Part shown: piece by piece, positions 2,588 through 14,820 of the stretch | Numbering within the stretch: position 1 is the stretch's first letter | How the letters are laid out: every line of letters starts with the position of its first letter | DNA from: Candidatus Eiseniibacteriota bacterium | GTDB lineage: Bacteria; Eisenbacteria; RBG-16-71-46 | Assembly: GCA_963707915.1 (NCBI GenBank) | Contig: OY970178.1 | Span: forward strand, 3,104,001 to 3,168,000 | Direction: 5' to 3' | Length of the DNA: 64,000 nt | Program-made: the position numbers and the translations under genes | Notes under the pieces: model-generated | Database searches by the model: none | What the model saw: only the letters and a program-made list of their open reading frames with translations | Told to the model about the DNA's origin: nothing

Positions 2588-3634
2588 TCAGCTGCCCGTG
2601 GTGTCGGGCGGCGTCGTGTCCTGCGGCAGGGCGAGCACCTGGAGCCGGCCGAGCGCGCGCTCGGTGATGGCGACGAGCCCCCGGCCGTCGGTCACGAACG
2701 AGGTCGGGTAGGAGACCTCGCCGGGAGCCGTGCCCTCGCCCGTGGCCAGGGTGAGGAAGCCGCCGGCGTGGTCGAAGACCTGCACGCTCTGGCGGATCTC
2801 GTCGCACACCCAGATGCGGCCGTCCCGCGTGCCCAGCACCCCCGACGGCAGCGAGATGTTGCCCGGCCCCATCTCGTGCGTCGCGAAGCCGCGCAGGTAG
2901 GCGCCCTCGCCGGTGAACACCTGCACGCCGAGGTCCGTGCGCGCGCAGGTCACCGCCAGCGTGCTGTCCGGCATGACGGCCAGCGCGGTCACGCTGTGCA
3001 GGCGGCCCGGGCCGCTCCCGGGCTCGCCCCAGGAGCCGGCGCGGGAGTAGTCGGCGGCGAAGCGGTGGATCCGGGAGCCCTCTCCGGAACTGGCCACGTA
3101 GATGGTGCCGTCGGGGCCGACGGCGAGGGCGATCGGCCGCTCGCCGGGAAGGTCCAGGCGCCGCAGCGGGCGGCCGCGACGGTCGAGGACGTCCACGTAC
3201 GACGCCGAGTTGTCCGCCACGAGCAGGCGCCCCGCGCGGTCGAAGGCCAGCGCGCAGGGCTCGCCGTCCACCAGCCCGCCGTCGGGACCGGCGACCCGGT
3301 GGACGAACCAGGTGAGGGCGCGCCCGGTCTTCGAGAAGACCTCGATCCGGTGGGCGCCGGTGTTGGCGACGTAGATCGCCCCGTCGAGCGGATCGAACGC
3401 CGCCCCGCGCGGCCGGCTCAGGTTGGTGCCGTCCGCGTAACCCCAGATGACCAGCCTAGGGGTGAGCAGGCGCGGGGCCGCGGCGACCGCGGCCAGCGCG
3501 CACGCGAGCAGCGCGGCCGCCAGCCCCGGGGCGAAGACGTGGCGCCGGACCCGTGCGCTGCGGAGCACCGCGCCCGCTCGGAGGCCGGGCTTCGCCCGGG
3601 CCCCCGGCTTCTCCTCGAGCGTCGCACGCGTCAC
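2588..3634 (-). CDS. NHL-repeat beta-propeller protein with N-terminal membrane anchor/signal
   Basis: Repeated NHL motifs (PRGAAFDP..GAIYVANTGAHRIEVF; PCALAFDRAGRLLVADN; PSGV..DGRIWVCDE..QSVQVFD); GTG start with GAAAGGTG RBS. Confidence 0.8.
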   Translation of the reverse strand: MTRATLEEKPGARAKPGLRAGAVLRSARVRRHVFAPGLAAALLACALAAVAAAPRLLTPRLVIWGYADGTNLSRPRGAAFDPLDGAIYVANTGAHRIEVFSKTGRALTWFVHRVAGPDGGLVDGEPCALAFDRAGRLLVADNSASYVDVLDRRGRPLRRLDLPGERPIALAVGPDGTIYVASSGEGSRIHRFAADYSRAGSWGEPGSGPGRLHSVTALAVMPDSTLAVTCARTDLGVQVFTGEGAYLRGFATHEMGPGNISLPSGVLGTRDGRIWVCDEIRQSVQVFDHAGGFLTLATGEGTAPGEVSYPTSFVTDGRGLVAITERALGRLQVLALPQDTTPPDTTGS

Positions 3635-3998
3635 GGGGCACGCACCTTTCTGCGGTCGGGCTGGCCCGGGCTCGCCGCCGGGGCGAGGCGGCACGGGGAT
3701 CGAGTCCCTTCGGGTCCGCCCATCGGCGCAGACACTACGGTCAGCCTCGCCCGCTGGCAACGCACGCCCCGCGGCGCCACCCGCGGCCGGGCGTTGACGC
3801 GCCTCGACCCCGGCCCCTATGTTGCCGCCGGCCGCGCGGCGGCCCGCAGGGTGCCGGCCCGGGCGGCCGCACGGAGACCACGCCATGACCAGGAACGGGG
3901 CGGTCCATGACCCGCAGGGCGGCAATCCGAGGGGAGCTCGGGACGTGGCCATCGCCGAGCGCGAGCCGGTCCGGCGCGGCGGCGGGCGGGATCACCTG

Positions 3999-5594
3999 AT
4001 GCCTCGCCGGGCGTCCGTGCTGGTCGCGCTCCTGGCGCTCGCGGTCTACCTGCCCCTCTGCCCGCCGGTGTCGGGGGTCGGGGACGGGAGCGAGTTCACC
4101 CTGGTGCTCGCCACGAACGGGGTCGCCCACCCCACCGGCTACCCCCTGTACGTCCTGCTGGGGCACCTGTTCTGCGTGCTCCTGCACGCGCTGGGCGTGT
4201 CCTGGCCGCTGGCTGCCAACGCCTGGAGCGCGGTCGGGGCCGCGGTGGCCATCGGCTTCCTGCACGCGCTCGGAACGGAGCTCGTCCGGCTCGCCACGCC
4301 GGGCCTGGCGGGGACCGCCCGCTTCGTCGCGGCGCTCGTGCCGGCGGCCCTGATCGCGTTCCAGCCCATCCTGCTGGGAGTGGCGACGTCGGCCGAGGTG
4401 AACAGCTGGAGCCTGGCCTGGGTCTGTGCGGCGGCCTGGGCCTTCCTGCGGCTGTCGGCCGCGGTGGCGCGCGACGGGGGCCCCGAGCCCTCGCCCGGCC
4501 GTGCGGCCGCCCTCTGGGGGCTGGTCTGCGGCCTCGGGTTGGCGCACCACCTCACCTCCGTGGTGGTGGCGCTGCCGCTCTCGGCGGGCCTGGTCGTGCT
4601 GCTCGCCCGGCGGCGGCGTCTTGGGCCCGGTCTGCTGTTCCGGGCCGCCGCGGCGGCGCTGGTCCCGCTCGCGAGCTACGGGATCATCGCCTGGCGCGCC
4701 TGGCACCCGGCCCGGGTGCAGTGGCCGGCGCTGGTCCCGGGAGCGGCCTCGGTGCTCGAGCACATCAGCGGAGCGCAGTACCGCCACTTCCTCGGCTACT
4801 TCGACCCGGCCGCCGACCACCGCGCGTTGCTGGCGCGCGCGGGCTATCCATTCCTCGTCCCGGGGTTGGCGCTGCTCCTGCTCGGTGTCCTGCGCGAGCG
4901 GCGGCCGGAGCGGCGGGTGGCGTGGGCGGCGCTCCTGGCCGCCGCGCTGTCGTCGGCCCTCTTCGCCTTCCGCTACGGGGTTCCCGACCCGGCGCCGTAC
5001 TTCCTGCCGGCGATGGCGCTGGGCGCGGCCGCGGCCGCGCCCACGGTGGCGAGCCTGGCGGGCGGGGCCGGGCGCGAGCGGGCGCTTCGCCTGGGCGTGA
5101 TGGGTCTGGCCGCGCTCGCCCTGGTCGTCCCCTGGATCCGCGGCGGGCTGGCGGAGCGCCGCGGACTGATCGAGAACGAGGCCATGCTCCGCTCGATGTG
5201 GTCCGCCGTGCCGTCGGACACGGCCATCGTCCTGTGGCCCGACGACCGCTTCATCCACCTGGTCGAGTACCAGATCCTGCGCGGCGAGAAGCCCGCGCTG
5301 TGGATCGCCACGCCGGACATGCTGCTGGAGGCCGCCACGCGCGCCGAGCTGCGGGGGCGCTTCGGGACCGACCCGCTCGAGGGGGTGCGCGTTCCCACGG
5401 TTCGCCCCGGCTTGCCGGACGAGGCGGCGACCATCCAGCGGTCGCTCGCCGCCATCGTCAGGAACCTGAACGCCCGCACGCGCGTCCCGGTGATCTGGTT
5501 CGACCCGGGCGTGCCCGAGGTGCGGCAGTTGCGCAAGCCCTGGGAGCCGGTGGAAGGCTCCGGCGCGCGTCCCGCCACGCTCCTGTCGCCGTAG
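3999..5594 (+). CDS. DUF2723/TMEM260-like membrane glycosyltransferase (GT-C fold)
   Basis: GDGSEF...GVAHPTGYPLYVLLGHLF and TSAEVNS motifs, many TM helices. Alternative starts at 3885 and 3945. Confidence 0.75.
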   Translation: MPRRASVLVALLALAVYLPLCPPVSGVGDGSEFTLVLATNGVAHPTGYPLYVLLGHLFCVLLHALGVSWPLAANAWSAVGAAVAIGFLHALGTELVRLATPGLAGTARFVAALVPAALIAFQPILLGVATSAEVNSWSLAWVCAAAWAFLRLSAAVARDGGPEPSPGRAAALWGLVCGLGLAHHLTSVVVALPLSAGLVVLLARRRRLGPGLLFRAAAAALVPLASYGIIAWRAWHPARVQWPALVPGAASVLEHISGAQYRHFLGYFDPAADHRALLARAGYPFLVPGLALLLLGVLRERRPERRVAWAALLAAALSSALFAFRYGVPDPAPYFLPAMALGAAAAAPTVASLAGGAGRERALRLGVMGLAALALVVPWIRGGLAERRGLIENEAMLRSMWSAVPSDTAIVLWPDDRFIHLVEYQILRGEKPALWIATPDMLLEAATRAELRGRFGTDPLEGVRVPTVRPGLPDEAATIQRSLAAIVRNLNARTRVPVIWFDPGVPEVRQLRKPWEPVEGSGARPATLLSP

Positions 5595-5657: not shown

Positions 5658-8600
5658 TCAGTCGCGCTTCGGCCCCATGGAGGGGTCGTGGCACTGGATG
5701 CACAGCTCCCGGGTCGGCTCGTGCGTCAGCAGGGAAGGCTGGTCGCTCGAGTGGGGCAGGTGGCAGCCGACGCAGTCGAGCGGCTCGTTGGTGCGCGGGT
5801 CCACGCCTCCCGAGACCTTGTGGAAGTGCTTGGACGTGTCCGAGTGGCACTGCCGGCACAGCGTGTCCACGTCCTCGGTGAGCAGCTTCTTGTGCTTCCC
5901 GCTGTGGGGATCGTGGCACGTCGCGCAGCCCTGCCCGAGCGCGGCGTGCACGTTCTTCCGGCGGAACGGGCGGGGATCGTGGCACTGGAAGCAGAGCTTC
6001 TCGCCCGCGCGCTTCAGCACGCCGGTCGCCATGCCCGCGTGCGCTCCGTGGCAGGAAAGGCAGGCCTCGCGCGACTGCAGCGGCGCGTGGACGACGGGCG
6101 CGGAGAGCCACGCTTTCTGCCCCTCGTGGCAGCGGAAGCACAGGTCGGGCACCGGCTGAGTCGTCGCCCCGGTCTTGCGCTCGCCATGACACTCGACGCA
6201 CCTGCGCTGCGCGAAGGGCATGTGCGAGACGGGCTTGAGCATGCCGGGCCGGCCCGTCGCTCCGACGTGCGGATCGTGGCAGTCCACGCAGTTGGCCTTC
6301 GCGAGGGCGAAGCCCTGGTGCTTCGCCAGGAGCCCCTGCTTCTCGATCGAGTGGCAGGCGGTGCAGAGCGCGGCCCCCTGGCGCTTCGTCATGCCGGGCT
6401 CGTCGGTGCCGTGGCTCGCGTGGCAGGTCGAGCAGAGCCCCATGGCGACCGGCGCGTGGGGCTTGCCCTGCGCGATGCGGGTCTGCAGGTCCGCGTGGCA
6501 GGTGAAGCACAGCGCGCCGGTGCGCTGCTTCAGCAGCGCCGGGTTGGCGCTCTCGTGCGGCTCGTGGCAGGTCGCGCACTGGCCCGCGGCCGCGGGCGGG
6601 TGCCCGTGCTTGAGCCGGGCGTCGGCGACGGCCCCGGCATGGCACCGGACGCACAGCCGGATGGGCTGGGTGACCAGCAGCGCCGCGCGGTCGGAGGCGT
6701 GCGGCGTGTGGCAGGCGACGCAATCGCCCTTCGCGACCGGCGGATGCACGTGGCCGGCGGCCGCGCCCTGCGGTGTGGCCTTCTTCTTCGGGATCTGGTG
6801 GCACGAGGCGCACAGCGTGGCCGCCGGGCGCGCCAGGTTCAGGGCCCCGGGCGCGCCGGTCTTCCCGTGGCACTTGGTGCACTCCTTCGACCCGAAGAAC
6901 GGGTGTTCGCGGGCCGCCAGCAGGCCGGCCGACTTGGACGCGTGCGGGGTGTGGCACGAGAGGCAGTCGACCGCGGTCAGCGTGGCGCCGCCGTGTTTCC
7001 GGGTGAGGTCCGCGTCCTCCAGGTCGTGGCAGTCGCCGCACAGCGCGGGCACCTTCTTCGTCAGGGCGGGCGCCGCCACGCCGCCGTGGGGATCGTGGCA
7101 GGAGAGGCACTCGCCGCTCTCCACCGGGGGATGCACGGTGTCCCCTTCCTTGCCGATGCCGCCGTGGCACCGGGTGCACAGGGCGTTGGGCTCGTCGCGC
7201 AGCAGGGCCGCCCGCGACCCGCCGTGGGGCTCGTGGCAGGCCGCGCACTGCCCGGCCGCGGCCGGGGTGTGGGGTGCGGGGCCCTTGATCTTCGCGGCGA
7301 TGTCGGCGTGGCACTTGGTGCAGAGGGTGGCCCCGCCGGTCGCGAGCAGGCGGTTGGTGAGCCCGCCGTGGGCGCCGTGGCACTCGAGGCACTGCCCGGC
7401 GGCTGCCGGCGCGTGCGGATGGGACGCCTTGGCCGCCATCACCTCCTGGCCGTGGCAGGGCGCGCAGATCTTCGCCGGCTCGCCGCGCAGCAGCTTGCCC
7501 TGGCCCGACTGGTGCGGGTCGTGGCAGGCGGTGCACTGGCCGGAGCGGAACGGCGGGTGCACCTCGAGGCCGACGAGCTTCTGCGCCAGGTCGGCGTGGC
7601 AGGTCCGGCAGAGCGCGCGCATGTCCTTGCGCAGGAGCCGCTCCTCGGCCGCCGAGTGGGGGGCGTGACAGCGCAGGCAGTCCTTCTTCGCGAACGGCGG
7701 GTGCGTCCCGGCGCTGTCGGCGCGGGCCCCGAGGTCCTTGTGGCAGTCGAGGCACATCGCGCCGTCGGCGGTCTTCAGGAGGTGCTCGCGGTCGGATCCG
7801 TGCGGCTGGTGGCAGCCGGCGCAGTCGCCGGCCGCGAACGCCTTGTGGACCACCGGCTGCTTCAGCGCTTCGGCGAGCTGGTCGTGGCACTGGCCGCAGA
7901 GTTCCAGCGGCTTCGACTTGAGCAGGCCCCGGGCGACCCCGCGGTGCGGGTCGTGGCAGGTGAGGCACTCGCCGCCCGCCGCCGGCGGGTGGGGCGTGGG
8001 TTTCTGGGACGCGGTCCGCACGTCGTCGTGGCAGGTGAAGCACAGCTCCGGCACCTCGGTGACGAGCTTCGCGCCCGCCTTGCCGTCCTCCATCGTGTGG
8101 CAGGCGTCGCAGCTGCCCTCGGCCGCGGGCGCGTGCGCGGTCTCGCGCCGGAGCGCGGTCTCGGTCGAGGCGTGCGGGTCGTGGCAGTCGAGGCAGGCCA
8201 GCCCGGCGACCGTGAGCTTCGCGTGCGCGGTGGCCGTGTCGGCGGGCTTGTGGCACGTCGCGCAGAGCTGGTCGGCCGGGCCGCGGAGCAGCCCGGCGTC
8301 CTTCGAACCGTGGGCGTCGTGGCACGCGTAGCAGTCGCCCCGGGCAAAGACCGCGTGCACGTGCGGCTTCTTCGCCTGGGCCGCGGCCTCCTCGTGACAG
8401 GGGAAGCAGGTGGCTTGCGGGCCCCCGGCGCGCAGCAGCCGCGGCTGGTCGGAGGCGTGCGGATCGTGGCAGGAGAGGCACTTGCCCTGTTCGTAGGCGG
8501 CGTGCGCGTGCTCGGGCTTCGCGGCCGTCTTCAGGGCGTCATGGCAGCCGAAGCACAGCTCCGGCGCCGGCTTCACCAGGATCAGCTTCTGCAGGAAGCC

Positions 8601-8819
8601 GTGGCTCTTGTGGCAGGCCGCGCAGTCCACCTTCGCGACCGGCGCGTGAACGAACTTCCTCGACCCGTAGTCCTGCTTCGCGTCCTTGTGGCAGTCGTAG
8701 CAGGGACGGCCCTTCGGCACCGGCTTCGCGGCGTCGACGTGTCCGGGCAGCAGCAGCGGGACGGCGCCGAGCAGTGCTGCCGCGAACAGCGCGCGCAGGA
8801 GACGGGCGGGGCGGCTCAT
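5658..8819 (-). CDS. Giant multiheme cytochrome c, 42 CxxCH motifs in paired (doubled) CxxCH repeats
   Basis: Counted 42 CxxCH motifs in 1053 aa; repeat unit H-x-P-x(4-5)-CxxCHxxH-x~15-LCxxCH; N-terminal signal peptide. Confidence 0.92.
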   Translation of the reverse strand: MSRPARLLRALFAAALLGAVPLLLPGHVDAAKPVPKGRPCYDCHKDAKQDYGSRKFVHAPVAKVDCAACHKSHGFLQKLILVKPAPELCFGCHDALKTAAKPEHAHAAYEQGKCLSCHDPHASDQPRLLRAGGPQATCFPCHEEAAAQAKKPHVHAVFARGDCYACHDAHGSKDAGLLRGPADQLCATCHKPADTATAHAKLTVAGLACLDCHDPHASTETALRRETAHAPAAEGSCDACHTMEDGKAGAKLVTEVPELCFTCHDDVRTASQKPTPHPPAAGGECLTCHDPHRGVARGLLKSKPLELCGQCHDQLAEALKQPVVHKAFAAGDCAGCHQPHGSDREHLLKTADGAMCLDCHKDLGARADSAGTHPPFAKKDCLRCHAPHSAAEERLLRKDMRALCRTCHADLAQKLVGLEVHPPFRSGQCTACHDPHQSGQGKLLRGEPAKICAPCHGQEVMAAKASHPHAPAAAGQCLECHGAHGGLTNRLLATGGATLCTKCHADIAAKIKGPAPHTPAAAGQCAACHEPHGGSRAALLRDEPNALCTRCHGGIGKEGDTVHPPVESGECLSCHDPHGGVAAPALTKKVPALCGDCHDLEDADLTRKHGGATLTAVDCLSCHTPHASKSAGLLAAREHPFFGSKECTKCHGKTGAPGALNLARPAATLCASCHQIPKKKATPQGAAAGHVHPPVAKGDCVACHTPHASDRAALLVTQPIRLCVRCHAGAVADARLKHGHPPAAAGQCATCHEPHESANPALLKQRTGALCFTCHADLQTRIAQGKPHAPVAMGLCSTCHASHGTDEPGMTKRQGAALCTACHSIEKQGLLAKHQGFALAKANCVDCHDPHVGATGRPGMLKPVSHMPFAQRRCVECHGERKTGATTQPVPDLCFRCHEGQKAWLSAPVVHAPLQSREACLSCHGAHAGMATGVLKRAGEKLCFQCHDPRPFRRKNVHAALGQGCATCHDPHSGKHKKLLTEDVDTLCRQCHSDTSKHFHKVSGGVDPRTNEPLDCVGCHLPHSSDQPSLLTHEPTRELCIQCHDPSMGPKRD

Positions 8820-9340
8820 CGCGCGGACACGGTGTCGTGGCCGGCCGGCCGCGTCGGGGGCGCGGTGGGCGGGCTCGCCGGGGCGACGGCCGACGTGTCG
8901 ACCATGATCGGCGCCCGCCCGGTGAACTCGACCTTGACCACCTGGAAGGCGAACATGGACTTGCGCGCGAAGTGGGGCGGCATCTTGAGCAGCGCCCAGG
9001 TCGTGTCCTGCGGCGCCTTCTTCTGGAAGACGATGATGCGGAAGGCGGGGTTGTCGGGCTGGTCGGACTTCGACATGATCTTGCGGGTGGTGAGGTCCAT
9101 GGTGAAGTCGGGCACGTACTCGACCACGCGCGCCGAGAAGTCGGTGTCACCGAGGATGAAGTCCTGCTTCAGCTTCACCCGCTGCAGGTCGCGGAAGTCG
9201 TGGAAGACGCGATGCCGCACCAGCAGCGTCACGGCGTCCAGCCGCGCCCCGCCCGCGGCCGCCGGCGGCTTCACCTGCGCCTGGGACGGGAGGACCGCGA
9301 CGAGTCCGATCAGGAGCCCGAGCCACCACGTGCGTCTCAT
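8816..9340 (-). CDS. Exported protein with a ResB/DUF2155-like PDF..S.S..P.NPA motif
   Basis: Signal peptide MRRTWWLGLLIGLVAVLPSQA; motif VVEYVPDFTMD...SKSDQPDNPAFRI; ATGA overlaps with both neighbours. Confidence 0.6.
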   Translation of the reverse strand: MRRTWWLGLLIGLVAVLPSQAQVKPPAAAGGARLDAVTLLVRHRVFHDFRDLQRVKLKQDFILGDTDFSARVVEYVPDFTMDLTTRKIMSKSDQPDNPAFRIIVFQKKAPQDTTWALLKMPPHFARKSMFAFQVVKVEFTGRAPIMVDTSAVAPASPPTAPPTRPAGHDTVSAR

Positions 9341-9969
9341 CTGGATCCTTCCTTGCGGGGGCCCGGCGCGCGGCGCGCGCCCGCCACCCTGAAGTCGCCG
9401 AGCATGTCCTGGGCGAGCAGCGAGACCAGCCGTTCCGTGCTCATGACCCGTCCCCAGCCGAACAGCGTCTCGTGGTCCTCGCCGGAGCGGAAGTGCACAC
9501 CGGCCCACAGGACCCGGCCGCTCGCGGCCTCGACCAGCCGCAGCGTGCCGCCCACGGCGGGCACGTCCAGGTCGCCGCTGCGCAACCGTCCGCTCTCGAG
9601 CACGCTGCCCATCAGCAGGTAGGGGGCGCGCAGGGCCTCGCCCAGCTCGCGGACCTGCGCCGGCGTGAGCGAGCCGCCCGAACGGATGCCCAGCGAGTCC
9701 ATCGCCTCGTCCACCTGCCCGGGCTCGGCCATCTCGAGGGCGCCGCTGGCGACCAGCTGGGCGAAGAACACCTTGCTGAAGAGCGCGCCCTGCTCCTCGC
9801 GGCCCGCGAGGTTCTCGAACGGCACGAGCGCGGCGCGCGGGTGGTCCGCGGGCACGGTGCCTCCGGCGGAGCGACGCAGGGCCGGTGCGCTCCCGGCGCA
9901 CAGCACCGCCAGGCCGGCGAGGACGGCGAGCCGCAGCCCGATCGCGATGCGCCCGTGACGTCGAGCCAT
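9337..9969 (-). CDS. CsgG/HfaB/PelC-like exported protein
   Basis: ALVPFENLAG...LGEALRAPYLLMGSV...VGGTLRLVEAASGRVLW matches the CsgG/TolB-N/LpoB-like alpha/beta fold pattern. Confidence 0.6.
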   Translation of the reverse strand: MARRHGRIAIGLRLAVLAGLAVLCAGSAPALRRSAGGTVPADHPRAALVPFENLAGREEQGALFSKVFFAQLVASGALEMAEPGQVDEAMDSLGIRSGGSLTPAQVRELGEALRAPYLLMGSVLESGRLRSGDLDVPAVGGTLRLVEAASGRVLWAGVHFRSGEDHETLFGWGRVMSTERLVSLLAQDMLGDFRVAGARRAPGPRKEGSR

Positions 9970-9971
9970 GG

Positions 9972-10562
9972 TCAGAACGCCCTCCCGCGCAGCCGGGCCA
10001 CGAGCTCGTCGCAGGCGTCCTGCGTCAGCCGTCCCAGCGAGCGCGAACTCTGGCCGAGGACCGGGATGCGGCTCTTGCCGCGCTTCGCGATCGAGGACCG
10101 CCAGACCACGTTCCCGGTGTTGGCGTCCAGCAGCTCCGCGTCGAACGACAGGACCGGGATGTCGCCGTTCTCCGTGCGCTGCATGGTGTACTCGCTGACC
10201 GCGCCGCGCAGCACGCCGGTGGCTCCCAGCCGGAGGGCCACCTCCTTGAGCTTCTGCAGGTCATACGTCCCGTCCGTCTCCGGCATGACGTTGTCCTTCA
10301 GCAGGGCGGTGCGGAACTCCTCGGGCTGCACGATCTGGTAGCGGTCCGTCATGATCAGCGAGGTGATGAAGGCGCGCGTGACGCGCGGTCCGGCCAGCCC
10401 CTCGCTGCTCAGGTTGGTGAACGGCAGCACGGCGATCCTGGTGTAGAAGGCCATGTCCGCGTCGGGATTCAGGTAGACCCGGGAGACCGGGGCGCAGGAG
10501 AGCAGGAGCAGGCCCAGGGCGGCGGCCGCCATGCGTGCCAGAGGATGGTGCTTCCCGGCCAT
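9972..10562 (-). CDS. CsgG/HfaB/PelC-like lipoprotein
   Basis: Lipobox LLLSC; RIAVLPFTNLS...LGATGVLRGAVSEY...LLDANTGNVVWR; GGAGG RBS; paralog of the neighbouring gene. Confidence 0.7.
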   Translation of the reverse strand: MAGKHHPLARMAAAALGLLLLSCAPVSRVYLNPDADMAFYTRIAVLPFTNLSSEGLAGPRVTRAFITSLIMTDRYQIVQPEEFRTALLKDNVMPETDGTYDLQKLKEVALRLGATGVLRGAVSEYTMQRTENGDIPVLSFDAELLDANTGNVVWRSSIAKRGKSRIPVLGQSSRSLGRLTQDACDELVARLRGRAF

Positions 10563-10563
10563 G

Positions 10564-12213
10564 CTACCTCCAGAGACTCTGGGACAAGGTCGCGCTCACC
10601 TGCCGGGCGCGGGTGGGAAGACCCGGGTCCGCCTGAGTGTAGCGAATCGTGGCGTGCAGGTCGCGGTTCAATGCCACGGCGAGCCAGGCGCCGTAGGCCT
10701 CACGGCCGGCCGTGAGCGACGTGCCGGGGTCGCGCAGTTGCTGGTTCGCGCGGGTGTAGGTGCCGCTCGCCTGGACGGTGCGCGAGGGGGTCCACTGCAC
10801 GCTGGCCTGCAGCGTCGAGCGGTCGGGCGCGTTGCGCACGAAGCCCCCGGCGCGGCCCCAGCTGCCGCTCGCCTGCAGCTTCTCCGAGGCCCGCCAGTCG
10901 AGGCTCGTCGTGTAGGTGGTCGAGGCCGGGCCGTCGCCCCGCAGCGTCGCGCCGGTGCGGTAGCGCCGCAGGTTCGCATTGAGGGTGACGGTGCGCAGCG
11001 GCACCGCGCGCAGGCCGGCGGCGGTCTGCAGCGTCACCAGGGTCGCGGCCGGGCCGGTTTCGAGGCCCGCGCTGGGGCGGTCGGCCCTGGAGAGCGAGGC
11101 CTCGCCGAAGGCGTCGAACCCCTTCGAGAGCCGCATCCGCGTGTTCGAGCGGATGCTCTGGACCGGGCGGGCGCGGTCGCCGGGGAGCCAGTTCCACGAC
11201 TGGTTCGCGCTCGCTCCCAACCTCCACCCGGGCCGGGCGTCGCCCTCGGCCGAGGCCGACGTGCTCAGGAAGCTCTCGGTCTCCTCGCTGCCCGCGACGT
11301 TGACGCTGCGCACTCCGCCGCCGCCGGACAACTGCACCGCCTTCCAGGGCCGGTGGATGACGCTGAGTGAGCCGTCGTGATCGACCTCGGTCGTGGTGGC
11401 GAACTGCGTGGTGCCCACGCTCCGGAAGCTGTAGGCGAGACTGGCAGAGGTCCGCTTGGAGATCGCCAGCCCCCCGTTCGCGGACGCGCTGTGCACGCGC
11501 GAGGTGGCGTCATGGGCCCCGTCGACCTGCCTGCGCGACTGGTTGTAGTCGTACTGGAGGACGGCATTCGCACGCCGGTTCTCGAGGCGCACGGTCGAGC
11601 CGGCGTTGACGTTCTCCTCGCTCCCGGTCCGCCGCCGCGCGCTGCGGTCCTCGTTGGCCAGGTCGCCGTAGCCCGCGTGGAGGTTCAGCCGCCCCAGGTC
11701 GTAGTTGGCCATCAGGCTGCGCCTCACGGCCGCTGTGCCCGGGAACGGGCCGCTCGCATCCTGGTTGCGACGGTTCCACGAGGCCGACAGCTGGGGAAGC
11801 CCGGCCCGCTGGAAGTAGCCCGTCAGGTTGGTCTCCTGCTGGCGGGTCGTGAGGTTGCGCGAATCGACGACCGTGATCGGCCGGTAGGAGCCGAACAGCC
11901 CGAACAGCGGATGGGCCAGGCGCAGGGAGCCCTGCGGGAGGATCTGGCGGTCGGGTCGTCCGATGGTGCGCTGGTCGGTGAACTGGAACCGGGACGAGAG
12001 CTCGTAGGCCTTGCGGAAGCGGCGGGAGTAGTCGAGTTGCACGGAGGTGAGCCACCATTCCACGTCGTTGGCCGGGTCCAGCAGGCTGAGCTTCGAGTAT
12101 TGCACCTCGGCGACTCCCCGGATCTTCTGCTGGGCGTCAGCGGGCCCGGCGAGCAGAACGGCCGCCATCGATGCCGCCACCAGCCCCGCCCCCAGCGCTC
12201 TTCGCCGCATCAT
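10564..12213 (-). CDS. Outer-membrane beta-barrel protein
   Basis: True start is MMRRRALGAGLVAASMAAVLLAGPADA (signal peptide; ATGA overlap with the upstream cytochrome); about 520 aa of amphipathic beta-strands. Confidence 0.75.
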   Translation of the reverse strand: MMRRRALGAGLVAASMAAVLLAGPADAQQKIRGVAEVQYSKLSLLDPANDVEWWLTSVQLDYSRRFRKAYELSSRFQFTDQRTIGRPDRQILPQGSLRLAHPLFGLFGSYRPITVVDSRNLTTRQQETNLTGYFQRAGLPQLSASWNRRNQDASGPFPGTAAVRRSLMANYDLGRLNLHAGYGDLANEDRSARRRTGSEENVNAGSTVRLENRRANAVLQYDYNQSRRQVDGAHDATSRVHSASANGGLAISKRTSASLAYSFRSVGTTQFATTTEVDHDGSLSVIHRPWKAVQLSGGGGVRSVNVAGSEETESFLSTSASAEGDARPGWRLGASANQSWNWLPGDRARPVQSIRSNTRMRLSKGFDAFGEASLSRADRPSAGLETGPAATLVTLQTAAGLRAVPLRTVTLNANLRRYRTGATLRGDGPASTTYTTSLDWRASEKLQASGSWGRAGGFVRNAPDRSTLQASVQWTPSRTVQASGTYTRANQQLRDPGTSLTAGREAYGAWLAVALNRDLHATIRYTQADPGLPTRARQVSATLSQSLWR

Positions 12214-13613
12214 CGAGCATAGTTGATCGTGTACGACTCGGGATCGTGACACGTCGGCGAGCAGGTGCCGCCGCTGGCCGTCTCGGTGTAGGAGCCGATG
12301 CCCGGGTTGCGCCCCGTGGCGATGAGATGGCGCTGGTCGGGCGAGCCGTGCGTGACGTGGCAGGCGTAACAGGGGACGTGCTCCTCGCCGACGTGCTCGG
12401 CGTGGCCCTTGTCCACCCCGGGCTTGTTGAACCGCGAGAGGGCCCTCGTCGCCTCGGGCGCGCCCGGGTCCGCGTAGACTTCGGGGGTGTGGCAGGCGAA
12501 GCAGATCTCGCCGGTGCTCATCGTCCGCGGCTGGGGCGAGGCGGTGTAGGGCTGCGTCAGGATGTAGCGGTACGAGGAGCCGTGCGGCCCGCGCGTGGAC
12601 CCGACGAAATCGCTGCCGTGGCAATCGCCGCAGCGCGTGAGGCTGGCGGCGCTCCAGCCGGGCGCGAACGCGCCGGCCGGGATCCCCGGGTTGCGGCCCG
12701 CGGCCTCGACCGGGTGGAACGACTCGTTCGCCGGGTTCAGGACCAGGGCCAGGTCGGTCTGCCCCGAGGGCTGGCTGGTCCAGGACGAATGGCACTTGAA
12801 GCAGAGCTGGTATTCCGCCACCGGCGCGCTCAGCGTATCGGAGCCGGCGGCGAACGTGAACGTGGGGGGCGTGCCCGCCGGGCCGTTCTGCACCAGCACC
12901 CGACTCACGCCCAGGTTGGTGCGCGAGAGCCCGGGGGCGGCCGGCGTGGCGGGCCGGTCGGCGCCGGCCACGTGCGGGTTGTGGCAGTCGACGCACTCGG
13001 AGTGGCGCGCGTTCGCGGGCGAGACCCCGAAGTCGGCGGGATCGGATTCGGCCGGTCCCTTGTGGCGCCCGGAGTAGAGCCGCACCGGGTGCCGGTAGAC
13101 CTTGGCGAGATCGGCGCCGATGTTGGTGGAAGCGGGCGCGCCGTCATGGCAGGTGAGGCAGAGAGTCTCCTCGCGCCCGATGGCGAGCGCCGGGATCAGC
13201 CCGCCGGCGTCCGACCAGCCGTGCGGGTCGTGGCAGTTGAGGCACTTGCCCTCCGCGCCCGGCTCGGTGCGTGGCGGGGGGGTGGGCCCCGGCCAGGCGG
13301 TCCCGGTGGCCGTGCCGTGAGAGGCGCCGGAGTACACCCAGGGCCCCGCGTAGCTGCCGGCCGTCCAGGGCTTGTCGTGGCAGCGGTCGCAAAGCGAGTT
13401 GTCGTCCGGGCCGAGCAGCGCGTGCCCGTAGACGACATCCCCCTGGCCGTGCACGGTGTGGCACTGGTCGCAGTCGCCCGCGTGCGCGCCCTGCGCCAGG
13501 AGCTTCTCGACGCCGGCGGGGGTGCGATAGGGATGCAGGGGCTGCGCTCCAGTCGCCAGCAGGCACACCAACGCCAGCCCCGCGAGGCTCGAGACGAGAT
13601 CCCTCGGTCGCAT
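12210..13613 (-). CDS. Multiheme cytochrome c (9 CxxCH + 1 CX3CH)
   Basis: Signal peptide from ATG 13613; CDQCH, CDRCH, CLNCH, CLTCH, CVDCH, CFKCH, CGDCH, CFACH, CYACH and terminal CSPTCH. Confidence 0.88.
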   Translation of the reverse strand: MRPRDLVSSLAGLALVCLLATGAQPLHPYRTPAGVEKLLAQGAHAGDCDQCHTVHGQGDVVYGHALLGPDDNSLCDRCHDKPWTAGSYAGPWVYSGASHGTATGTAWPGPTPPPRTEPGAEGKCLNCHDPHGWSDAGGLIPALAIGREETLCLTCHDGAPASTNIGADLAKVYRHPVRLYSGRHKGPAESDPADFGVSPANARHSECVDCHNPHVAGADRPATPAAPGLSRTNLGVSRVLVQNGPAGTPPTFTFAAGSDTLSAPVAEYQLCFKCHSSWTSQPSGQTDLALVLNPANESFHPVEAAGRNPGIPAGAFAPGWSAASLTRCGDCHGSDFVGSTRGPHGSSYRYILTQPYTASPQPRTMSTGEICFACHTPEVYADPGAPEATRALSRFNKPGVDKGHAEHVGEEHVPCYACHVTHGSPDQRHLIATGRNPGIGSYTETASGGTCSPTCHDPESYTINYAR

Positions 13614-13746: not shown

Positions 13747-14820
13747 TCAGGGGATGATCGCGACCGGGTTGCCGGCCGGGAAGCTGCCCTGGGTGTGGCA
13801 CTGACGGCACAGGTCGCGGTACTCGCCGCCGTCACCCTGCTCGGTGATGTCGGTCGGGGTTGCGGGCGTGTTGGGACCGGTCGTGGTGTTGTCCACGAAC
13901 CAGATCAGCCCGAAGCCGTTCTGGTTGCCGTGCGACTTGTGGCAGGTGAAGCACGACGGGGTCGCGGTGGCGGTCGAACCGTCCCACTGGCCCAGCCCGT
14001 CCATCAGCTTGACCTTGTGCGTGTGCAGGTTCAGCTGGGTGCGGTTGCTGGTGCTGAGGTCCACGCCGGCCGTCGGGTGACGGACCACGCCGTCGACGGT
14101 CTCGATGTTGGCGTCCGCCGGTGAGCCGTGGAAGGTCGTGTGGCAGGCCTGGCACCATGCGCCGTAGGCGCTCGTGGTCTGGCTCGGCTCCTGGTAGTTG
14201 ACGTTGTTCCAGCCGTAGCCGCGCGCGGCCGCCTCGTAGACGTCCTTCGTGTTGGTGGGCGTCCCGCCGATCTCGTAGGAGACGAACCGGTTGTAGAAGG
14301 CGTTGGTGCTGCGCGTGCTGCTCTTCAGGTTGCGGTAGTTCGCCGCGCCGTGCGCGGAGTGGCAGTCCGCACAACCCAGGCCGCTCGCGCTCACGGGCGA
14401 AGTCGTGCCGCTGAAGCCCGGCGGCGTGGCGGTCGACCACAGCGTGTGGCCGTCACCGACGGAGTAGCCGGCGTCGTTCGTGTAGCCGTGGCCCGACTCG
14501 ACGTTCAGCGCACCGGCGAGGCGGCCGTTCAGCGGGGCCGCGCTCGTGGTGCCGAGCACGTCCGGAACGTCCGTGCGACCGTCGTGGCACGAGAGGCACA
14601 CCGCGTTGACCGACGACTGGCGCAGCAGCTTCGCGAACGGAGCGCCGGCGCCCGGAGGATTCAGCTCGCCGGTCTCGGGGTAGGTGTGCGACTGCTGGCC
14701 GTGCATCACGTGGCAATCGCTGCAGACCAGCAACTGGCCGACGTGATAGTCGCCCGACAACGCGACGGTCGTGAGACCGGCGAGGGCCAGGACGACGAGG
14801 GAGAGCAACAGGCGCTTCAT
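13747..14820 (-). CDS. OmcS-like hexaheme cytochrome c (candidate nanowire subunit)
   Basis: Six CxxCH motifs in OmcS-like context: YHVG....CSDCHVMH; LL......CLSCH; GH...PPG; LGCADCHSAHG..YRNL; WCQACH..FH...RHP; CFTCHKSH; RDLCRQCH. GAGGAG RBS. Confidence 0.8.
   Translation of the reverse strand: MKRLLLSLVVLALAGLTTVALSGDYHVGQLLVCSDCHVMHGQQSHTYPETGELNPPGAGAPFAKLLRQSSVNAVCLSCHDGRTDVPDVLGTTSAAPLNGRLAGALNVESGHGYTNDAGYSVGDGHTLWSTATPPGFSGTTSPVSASGLGCADCHSAHGAANYRNLKSSTRSTNAFYNRFVSYEIGGTPTNTKDVYEAAARGYGWNNVNYQEPSQTTSAYGAWCQACHTTFHGSPADANIETVDGVVRHPTAGVDLSTSNRTQLNLHTHKVKLMDGLGQWDGSTATATPSCFTCHKSHGNQNGFGLIWFVDNTTTGPNTPATPTDITEQGDGGEYRDLCRQCHTQGSFPAGNPVAIIP

Follow-up and report, generated by a model that had tools for sequence, protein, structure and literature searches.

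The 42-heme cytochrome gene

The DNA considered here, referred to below as the window, is a stretch of 64,000 nucleotides from the assembly GCA_963707915.1 of a Candidatus Eiseniibacteriota bacterium (contig OY970178.1, positions 3,104,001 to 3,168,000). On its minus strand, positions 5658 to 8819 encode a c-type cytochrome of 1053 amino acids (plus stop codon) with 42 heme-binding CxxCH motifs. Judged by its homologues, this gene, which we call c42, is a natural fusion of a 26-heme and a 16-heme cytochrome that elsewhere are encoded by adjacent but separate genes; in heme count and gene context the two parts resemble the Geobacter proteins OscI and OscJ, respectively.

The c42 protein contains 84 cysteines, every one of them within a CxxCH motif, and 93 histidines. 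The density is one motif per 25.1 residues, whereas 2000 shuffles of the protein gave a mean of 0.58 motifs and a maximum of four; the variant heme motifs CxxxCH, CxxxxCH and CxxCK are absent from c42, and the plus-strand frame at 5658–8819 has no CxxCH at all. Nineteen motifs (hemes 2, 4, 6, 8, 11 and so on to 41) have the extended form CxxCHxxH, and 14 are preceded by H.P within 12 residues. By far the best family match is PF09699 (693.3 bits against a curated cut-off of 20.6), a family of tandem 41-residue domains with two CxxCH motifs each, followed by TIGR01905 (646.5 bits, cut-off 25.2), and the doubled-CXXCH stretches number 21 by both Pfam and NCBIfam. The MtrA/DmsE model TIGR03508 also matches (439.8 bits, cut-off 192.2), although this score is a sum over ten repeated stretches, and the match to Cytochrome_C7 at 152 bits is secondary to that to PF09699. 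Neither the Pfam nor the NCBIfam scan returned a non-cytochrome family.

The N-terminal ~30 residues (8730..8819, minus strand) form a predicted signal peptide, recognised from hydropathy and from comparison of N-termini, with cleavage probably near VDA/AK and no lipobox. Hydropathy peaks at 2.0 over residues 5–25 and reaches at most 1.08 beyond residue 40. Assuming cleavage near residue 30, the mass of the holoprotein would be ~134 kDa. On sequence criteria, then, c42 is a Sec-exported, non-catalytic multiheme chain. A preliminary description of the locus had reported 42 motifs in 1053 residues, or about one per 25, arranged as about 21 paired units with alternating distal histidines behind a signal peptide and without a transmembrane anchor or catalytic domain, and on each of these counts it agrees with the motif, family and hydropathy data for this minus-strand gene.

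Heme ligands and modular plan

To place the distal ligands, we took 91 proteins with 42 hemes, c42 included, and tallied the histidines outside the motifs for every stretch between them. In an alignment of 46 full-length members, the 42 motifs and 38 further histidines are all invariant. Each inter-motif segment holds one conserved histidine, apart from exceptions after hemes 8, 9, 25, 26, 34, 35, 40 and 42: two are present after hemes 8, 25, 34 and 40 and none after hemes 9 and 26 (91/91 proteins in each case), whilst no histidine is conserved after heme 35 or after heme 42. Across the 91 proteins the conserved distal positions total exactly 42, so that all 42 hemes can be bis-histidine ligated.

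The same places are marked by unusual motif spacings of 28, 28 and 30 residues at hemes 8–9, 25–26 and 34–35, seen in 84, 87 and 83 of the 91 proteins, and a fourth break lies at hemes 40–42. The four histidine-rich points repeat one pattern, a punctuation of three hemes, and split the chain into modules of 9, 17, 9 and 7 hemes. Within c42, segment similarity peaks at even offsets, giving a two-heme period, and the atypical segments are alike in two sets (7, 24 and 33; 9 and 35). Segment-to-segment similarity shows no sign of recent block-level duplication within c42. The three breaks noted in the preliminary description are thus real and, being present in 83–87 of 91 proteins, ancient, but the fourth was overlooked, and the larger duplicated blocks they were taken to suggest are not found: what breaks the pattern is three-heme punctuation in a 9+17+9+7 plan.

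A fusion of 26-heme and 16-heme proteins

The boundary between the second and third modules is also where c42 divides into two proteins. Its N-terminal part (6840..8729, minus strand) comprises hemes 1–26 (modules of 9 and 17) and is equivalent to the 26-heme proteins that occur on their own, GSU2495/OscI among them; the C-terminal part (5661..6839, minus strand) comprises hemes 27–42 (modules of 9 and 7) and has its equivalent in independently encoded 16-heme proteins. Motif spacing and the ends of the 26-heme proteins place the joint at residues 652–674 (6798..6866, minus strand), comprising the heme-26 motif, an 18-residue linker and the heme-27 motif.

Evidence for the 26-heme half comes from a second class of c42 homologues, which have 26 motifs in ~650–720 residues and end a few residues past heme 26, at the boundary of modules 2 and 3. 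For the other half, we searched with c42 residues 661–1053 among shorter proteins: 46 of the 53 matches of 380–460 amino acids carry 16 motifs, and these 46 share the spacing signature of hemes 27–42. Most of them start with a signal peptide of their own, and three look like fragments. The two halves are found side by side in a Nitrospiraceae metagenome-assembled genome (MAG), where a gene for 653 residues and 26 hemes is followed by one for 447 residues and 16 hemes, and in a Desulfuromonadales MAG, where the adjacent genes (658 residues and 26 hemes; 389 residues and 16 hemes) overlap by 4 nucleotides. The Desulfuromonadales proteins are 36% and 34% identical to c42 residues 31–651 and 662–1044, respectively.

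In c42 the gap from heme 26 to heme 27 is 23 residues (family median 22), as between ordinary neighbours, and so the heme chain is probably continuous across the joint. At least nine of 24 26-heme relatives have an N-terminal lipobox, which suggests that one end of the chain is fixed at a membrane.

How often the two genes have been joined was examined with a quick, unrooted FastTree analysis of the 16-heme parts of 91 fused and 43 split proteins, the three fragment-like rows having been dropped and all rows being matches picked by their similarity to c42. Eighty-three fused forms, that of the window included, fall on the same side of a branch supported at 93%. Fused and split states change five times on the tree, with at least three changes forced by well-supported branches, compared with 36.7 changes for shuffled labels. 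The tree shows only that fusion or fission occurred a few times. That the same two genes have been fused repeatedly argues for a physical interaction between their products. The preliminary description's idea of a covalently pre-polymerised chain survives in that two chains (26+16) have been joined, but c42 is not a polymer of identical subunits.

Constancy of the heme count and authenticity of the gene

Heme counts among homologues, a comparison that the preliminary description had proposed, proved largely constant: 90 of 120 homologues among the matches listed have exactly 42 motifs, as do 89 of the 92 that are 1000–1110 residues long (the others having 35, 40 and 41). The listed homologues are 31–40% identical to c42 and come, where named, from Zixibacteria, GN15, Krumholzibacteria, Latescibacterota, Gemmatimonadaceae and similar groups. 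Among 22 related loci fetched from relatives, the c42 orthologue is a single open reading frame (ORF) with 42 motifs in 20.

A repetitive architecture of this kind raises the question of whether the number of repeats was inflated or collapsed during assembly, all the more so as no public contig was found that crosses the whole c42 gene: the contigs from four public runs that lie on it are pieces of 151–297 nucleotides only. We regard such an artefact as scarcely credible. Tandem Repeats Finder detected no array at the repeat period in the c42 DNA, the most alike single-heme segments are 73% identical at the DNA level and the longest exact repeat is 22 nucleotides. The source genome is one contig of 3.62 Mb (94.8% complete), the count of 42 recurs in the independent assemblies described above, and short contigs from three other runs are colinear with c42, with 0–1 differences and no indels. 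Candidate joints in the public-run contigs have sides of 20–29 letters at less than 95% likeness and probably represent other organisms or cross-matches between motifs. No public run contained more than 0.17 of the sampled c42 words, and no RNA run was among those listed.

Structural likeness to MtrA

An AlphaFold2 (AF2) model of c42, built from the 46-sequence alignment, has a mean predicted local distance difference test (pLDDT) score of 82.8 and sparse secondary structure. Its weakest internal stretch, residues 678–686, lies in a loop after heme 27 that is the site of a small insertion in c42. A Foldseek search of the PDB with this model gave a single significant match, to the decaheme cytochrome MtrA (6R2Q chain A, E 4.1e-6), and phmmer against the PDB sequences also matched MtrA (E 3.2e-14). 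VIA-align superposed residues 845–1032 of the model on MtrA 143–333, its C-terminal half (Z 11.7, root-mean-square deviation 4.0 Å over 169 residues), so that the similarity in fold covers the C-terminal part of c42 only.

MtrA/DmsE proteins (TIGR03508) share with c42 a doubled-CXXCH block, bis-histidine hemes and little secondary structure, and from these matches we conclude that c42 is a member of the doubled-CXXCH/MtrA superfamily. They differ in size, with 10 hemes in ~300–350 residues against 42 in 1053. They are also encoded beside, and inserted into, an MtrB/PioB-type porin; no gene of that type adjoins c42, whose cluster includes a putative barrel of 549 residues three genes away. An ordinary decaheme and barrel gene pair lies separately, downstream of c42, at 2–2221. 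In the solved complex the ten hemes of MtrA span 80 Å, with the C-terminus outward and the N-terminus reaching into the periplasm. Scaled at 8.9 Å per heme step, c42 would have an upper-bound length of ~36 nm, of which the first 26 hemes would account for ~22 nm and the last 16 for ~13 nm.

The gene cluster and its distribution

Upstream of c42, and also on the minus strand, lie six further genes. The first cluster gene in the window encodes a six-heme cytochrome of 357 residues (c6; 13747..14820) and is followed by genes for a nine-heme cytochrome (c9; 467 residues from the likely start; 12210..13613), a putative outer-membrane barrel of 549 residues without a Pfam match (10564..12213), an LpoB-like lipoprotein of 196 residues with a lipobox (lipoprotein 1; 9972..10562), a second lipoprotein of 210 residues with a weak LpoB-like match (lipoprotein 2; 9337..9969) and a secreted beta-sandwich protein of 174 residues (8816..9340), whose stop codon overlaps the c42 start (ATGA).

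We compared this arrangement with the 22 related loci, defined by c6 and c42 homologues on one contig; twenty come from the window's own phylum and two from a related-locus search. The order NHL, c6, c9, barrel, lipoprotein 1, lipoprotein 2, small protein, c42 holds in 22/22, the barrel being detectable by tblastn in 15. By this gene order, c42 is the last gene of a conserved eight-gene cluster that resembles the omcS-companion cluster discussed below. The NHL-repeat beta-propeller gene has a homologue directly upstream of c6 in all 22 loci. In the window it is found instead downstream of c42 (2588..3550, minus strand), behind a plus-strand gene for a TMEM260-like glycosyltransferase (3819–5594), and the 2588–5594 region looks like a local rearrangement or insertion.

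The OmcS-like label of the c6 protein is unconfirmed by sequence: a PDB sequence search with it returned neither OmcS nor any other cytochrome at E<=1. The 174-residue protein has a tblastn match in 22/22 related loci and invariant VPDF, NPA and PPHF motifs in 22 orthologues. Its AF2 model has a pLDDT of 84; it falls in no Pfam family, Foldseek returned nothing at E<=0.001, the best VIA match (Z 6.4) is within noise, and there is a weak Atlas lead to DUF2155 (0.79). A complex prediction pairing barrel residues 28–549 with c42 residues 661–1053 scored 0.00 and, having been run without controls, is informative neither way.

Among 151 sampled genomes of the phylum, c42 was detected in 55 and the hexaheme in 44, with both in 42, and the spread is patchy. 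Thirteen of the 55 c42 genomes have no hexaheme match at E<=1e-15, a threshold that distant hexahemes may have escaped. An apparent absence of c42 from the rest of the genus (0/5 genomes) was not upheld, since the barrel gene is cut off by the end of the contig in the one same-genus relative checked, which makes such absence calls weak.

Comparison with the osc cluster and other cytochromes

The omcS-companion (osc) cluster of Geobacter sulfurreducens was reportedly defined by Shen et al. in 2025 (Cell Chem Biol). In the portions of the published accounts drawn on here, GSU2495 (oscI) encodes a protein of ~70 kDa with 26 heme-binding motifs and lies with GSU2494 (oscJ) near omcS; both products are listed as periplasmic, and a preprint terms gsu2495 a periplasmic cytochrome, in each case without a stated basis in those portions. 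The same portions link an eight-gene block, GSU2500–2493, downstream of the OmcS-like GSU2501, to the maturation and secretion of OmcS nanowires, and associate OscH with folding, the trio OscE, OscF and OscG with secretion, and OscD with the morphology of the filament.

The Desulfuromonadales locus with the split genes encodes a heme-bearing NHL propeller, an outer-membrane barrel, LpoB/CsgG-like and TolB_N-like lipoproteins, a peptidyl-prolyl isomerase (PPIase), the 26- and 16-heme proteins and an NHL protein, a composition in keeping with what is described for the osc cluster. OscI and OscJ, like c42, would together carry 26 + 16 = 42 hemes, split at the same module boundary and behind a periplasmic-type signal, the count of 16 for OscJ (GSU2494) being taken from the Desulfuromonadales MAG. 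The osc neighbourhood likewise shares with the window a hexaheme, LpoB/CsgG-like lipoproteins, a barrel and NHL propellers. It differs in using two polypeptides rather than one and in having the PPIase (OscH) directly upstream, whereas in the window this position, that of the OscH-like gene in the Desulfuromonadales locus, is filled by the gene for the 174-residue beta-sandwich protein. Matched in this way by heme count and gene context, c42 is best described as a fused OscI–OscJ.

Two other groups of long cytochromes invite comparison. The idea of a periplasm-spanning single-chain cytochrome is already in print for the PCC3 cytochromes of Gallionellaceae (21–27 hemes), which, in the available text, are long single chains belonging to a porin–cytochrome cluster and are predicted to be linear and to span the periplasm. 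According to that text, and likened to c42 by description only, they differ in having a variable heme number (21, 24 or 27), in belonging to iron oxidisers and in lying in another gene cluster. The c7 polymers of the GSU1996 and GSU0592 type are also single chains with many hemes and have been proposed as wires or capacitors, but are built from a repeating three-heme c7 domain, unlike c42 with its two-heme period and its far better match to PF09699. No description of a 42-heme family was found in the full-text literature searched. In that literature, which does not include Shen et al. 2025, the invariance of 42 hemes across phyla, the 9-17-9-7 plan with its 42 conserved distal histidines and the correspondence between 26 + 16 and 42 hemes seem to be undescribed.

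A proposed function and its alternatives

The periplasm is about 20–30 nm wide, and there is continuing debate over the route by which electrons traverse it to arrive at conduits in the outer membrane and at cytochrome nanowires; for Geobacter, the present model invokes small triheme cytochromes that diffuse. Within this setting, c42 probably conducts electrons through the envelope in the direction of a conductive filament of cytochromes. The reading that we favour, and to which we give about an even chance, is that c42 is a static wire of fixed length that spans the periplasm and feeds the outer-membrane and filament machinery, a proposal that is largely inferred. The 42 hemes would form one continuous chain, up to ~36 nm long if as straight as MtrA. 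This chain would stay in place as a wire and not diffuse as a shuttle, and its length would be under selection. The N-terminal 26-heme part would span the periplasm from an inner-membrane quinol dehydrogenase, and the MtrA-like C-terminal 16-heme part would pass electrons to the barrel and lipoprotein machinery of the outer membrane, from which they could reach the hexaheme (putatively OmcS-like) and nine-heme cytochromes outside. In lineages with split genes, the 26- and 16-heme chains would dock end to end to give an equivalent 42-heme unit.

We prefer a fixed, end-attached wire to a diffusing store of electrons because the number 42 is kept (also as 26 + 16), because fusion has occurred repeatedly and because some 26-heme relatives carry a lipobox. 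The preliminary description had likewise proposed a wire, and this part has some support, in that MtrA, the sole solved relative, is a linear insulated wire and the c42 cluster includes a hexaheme gene; the duplicated blocks that went with it are not supported. Several points weigh against our proposal. The c42 protein has neither a lipobox nor a membrane anchor, leaving its N-terminal end without a fixture, and its location is judged from its signal peptide and its relatives. The AF2 model has a predicted template-modelling (pTM) score of only 0.57 and was built without hemes. The putative barrel, lying three genes from c42 rather than adjacent to it, matches neither MtrB/PioB nor any Pfam family. 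The genome encodes a hexaheme protein with two c7 domains that might serve as a soluble carrier, so that electrons may instead take a diffusive route. The likeness to osc is one of heme count and gene context, and the paper that defined osc may give OscI and OscJ another role.

A stronger version of the wire, which we hold to be possible but rather doubtful, takes the chain as a ruler: a rigid wire of ~33–36 nm, whether one chain or 26 + 16, would form a permanent bridge between the quinol dehydrogenase of the inner membrane and the foot of an OmcS-type filament, repeated fusion would have made the joint between the halves hard-wired and soluble shuttles would be unnecessary. It is unlikely, in our estimation, that the 42 hemes serve mainly as a periplasmic capacitor, storing charge to buffer respiration when no acceptor is within reach. 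The very high heme density (25 residues per heme) and the lack of an anchor on c42 would suit this role, and, in the parts of the literature to hand, storage is what is commonly put forward instead for multiheme cytochromes of very large size. A store needs no exact number of hemes, however, yet 42 are kept in 90 of the 120 matches listed, and as 26 + 16 when the genes are split; the order of the four modules and all 42 distal-histidine positions are fixed, and some relatives are lipid-anchored at one end. Storage and conduction are, in any case, mutually compatible.

Two further possibilities place c42 elsewhere than in the main electron path of the periplasm. It might cross the outer membrane by way of the barrel and lipoproteins and serve at the surface as the base or an extension of the filament, as could be imagined from the secretion of OmcS nanowires proposed, in the portions cited above, for the Geobacter counterpart cluster; the preliminary description, too, had entertained export. 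We think this quite unlikely, since c42 has a Sec signal only, its closest solved relative MtrA is periplasm-facing and barrel-inserted, the lipobox of some relatives is an argument for anchoring in one leaflet of a membrane, and OscI, OscJ and gsu2495 are called periplasmic in those portions, where how this was determined is unstated. Alternatively, the chain could be a scaffold that templates or primes hexaheme polymerisation, or that sets the spacing of the envelope, without being the main path for electrons. This we judge very improbable: the presence of c42 in 42 of the 44 genomes with a hexaheme, its fixed length and the accounts (as far as those portions go) of other cluster genes in Geobacter as folding and secretion factors all speak for it, but it has no direct evidence in its favour, it does not need 42 fully ligated hemes with conserved bis-histidine geometry, and the 13 of 55 c42 genomes without a detected hexaheme, distant ones being possibly missed, count against it.

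The constancy of the heme number at 42 across phyla, whether a single gene or a pair encodes the chain, speaks for a static wire that is matched to a distance and forms part of the nanowire gene cluster, and gives a testable function for OscI and OscJ of Geobacter, which are functionally uncharacterised. The natural fusion offers a ready-made construct for structural work, and c42 could also be a template for engineering long protein wires of defined length.

Other multiheme proteins in the genome and in relatives

The whole source genome has only 17 ORFs with two or more CxxCH motifs. A second multiheme locus (G000:C1:2604929-2653508) holds ORFs with 13, 19, 9, 8, 18, 9 and 23 motifs. The 18-heme ORF (2617191-2619008, minus strand) starts with a NapC/NirT-type region followed by a long heme tail, and its product is a candidate for the inner-membrane quinol dehydrogenase or donor. 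A motif scan of the genome revealed no triheme ORF of PpcA size; the sole candidate found for a small PpcA-like shuttle is the six-heme protein with two cytochrome c7 domains mentioned above (G000:C1:2284057-2284776, minus strand), whose presence led us to drop the idea of a genome without a soluble shuttle.

Among relatives, the closest named one (52% identity, labelled Candidatus Eisenbacteria; L001:9566-12490, plus strand) has only 34 CxxCH motifs in its ORF and is located next to CcmF, with the remainder of the cluster missing; either it is truncated or it is arranged differently. At two loci (L028 and L031, in genomes G149 and G041) the c42 homologue is in pieces, with 18 and 35 motifs in the largest ORF, which may reflect frameshifts or real splits at other positions. 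Three proteins (P0103, P0106 and P0110) form a 38-heme class of ~980 residues, in which punctuation follows hemes 8, 13, 18, 23 and 30, a long insert lies close to the C-terminus and building blocks of the c42 type are put together on a different module plan. The homologue P0094 (1629 residues) has 52 CxxCH motifs as four copies of a 13-heme super-repeat and, unlike c42, looks block-duplicated. Further long multiheme proteins are encoded in two Desulfuromonadales MAGs: in one, an ORF of 1493 residues (L007:9788-14269, plus strand) has 72 CxxCH motifs with a spacing unlike that of the c42 family and is followed by a 12-heme ORF, and in another, an open-ended ORF of more than 3220 residues (L012:7394-17053, plus strand) has 49 widely spaced CxxCH motifs.

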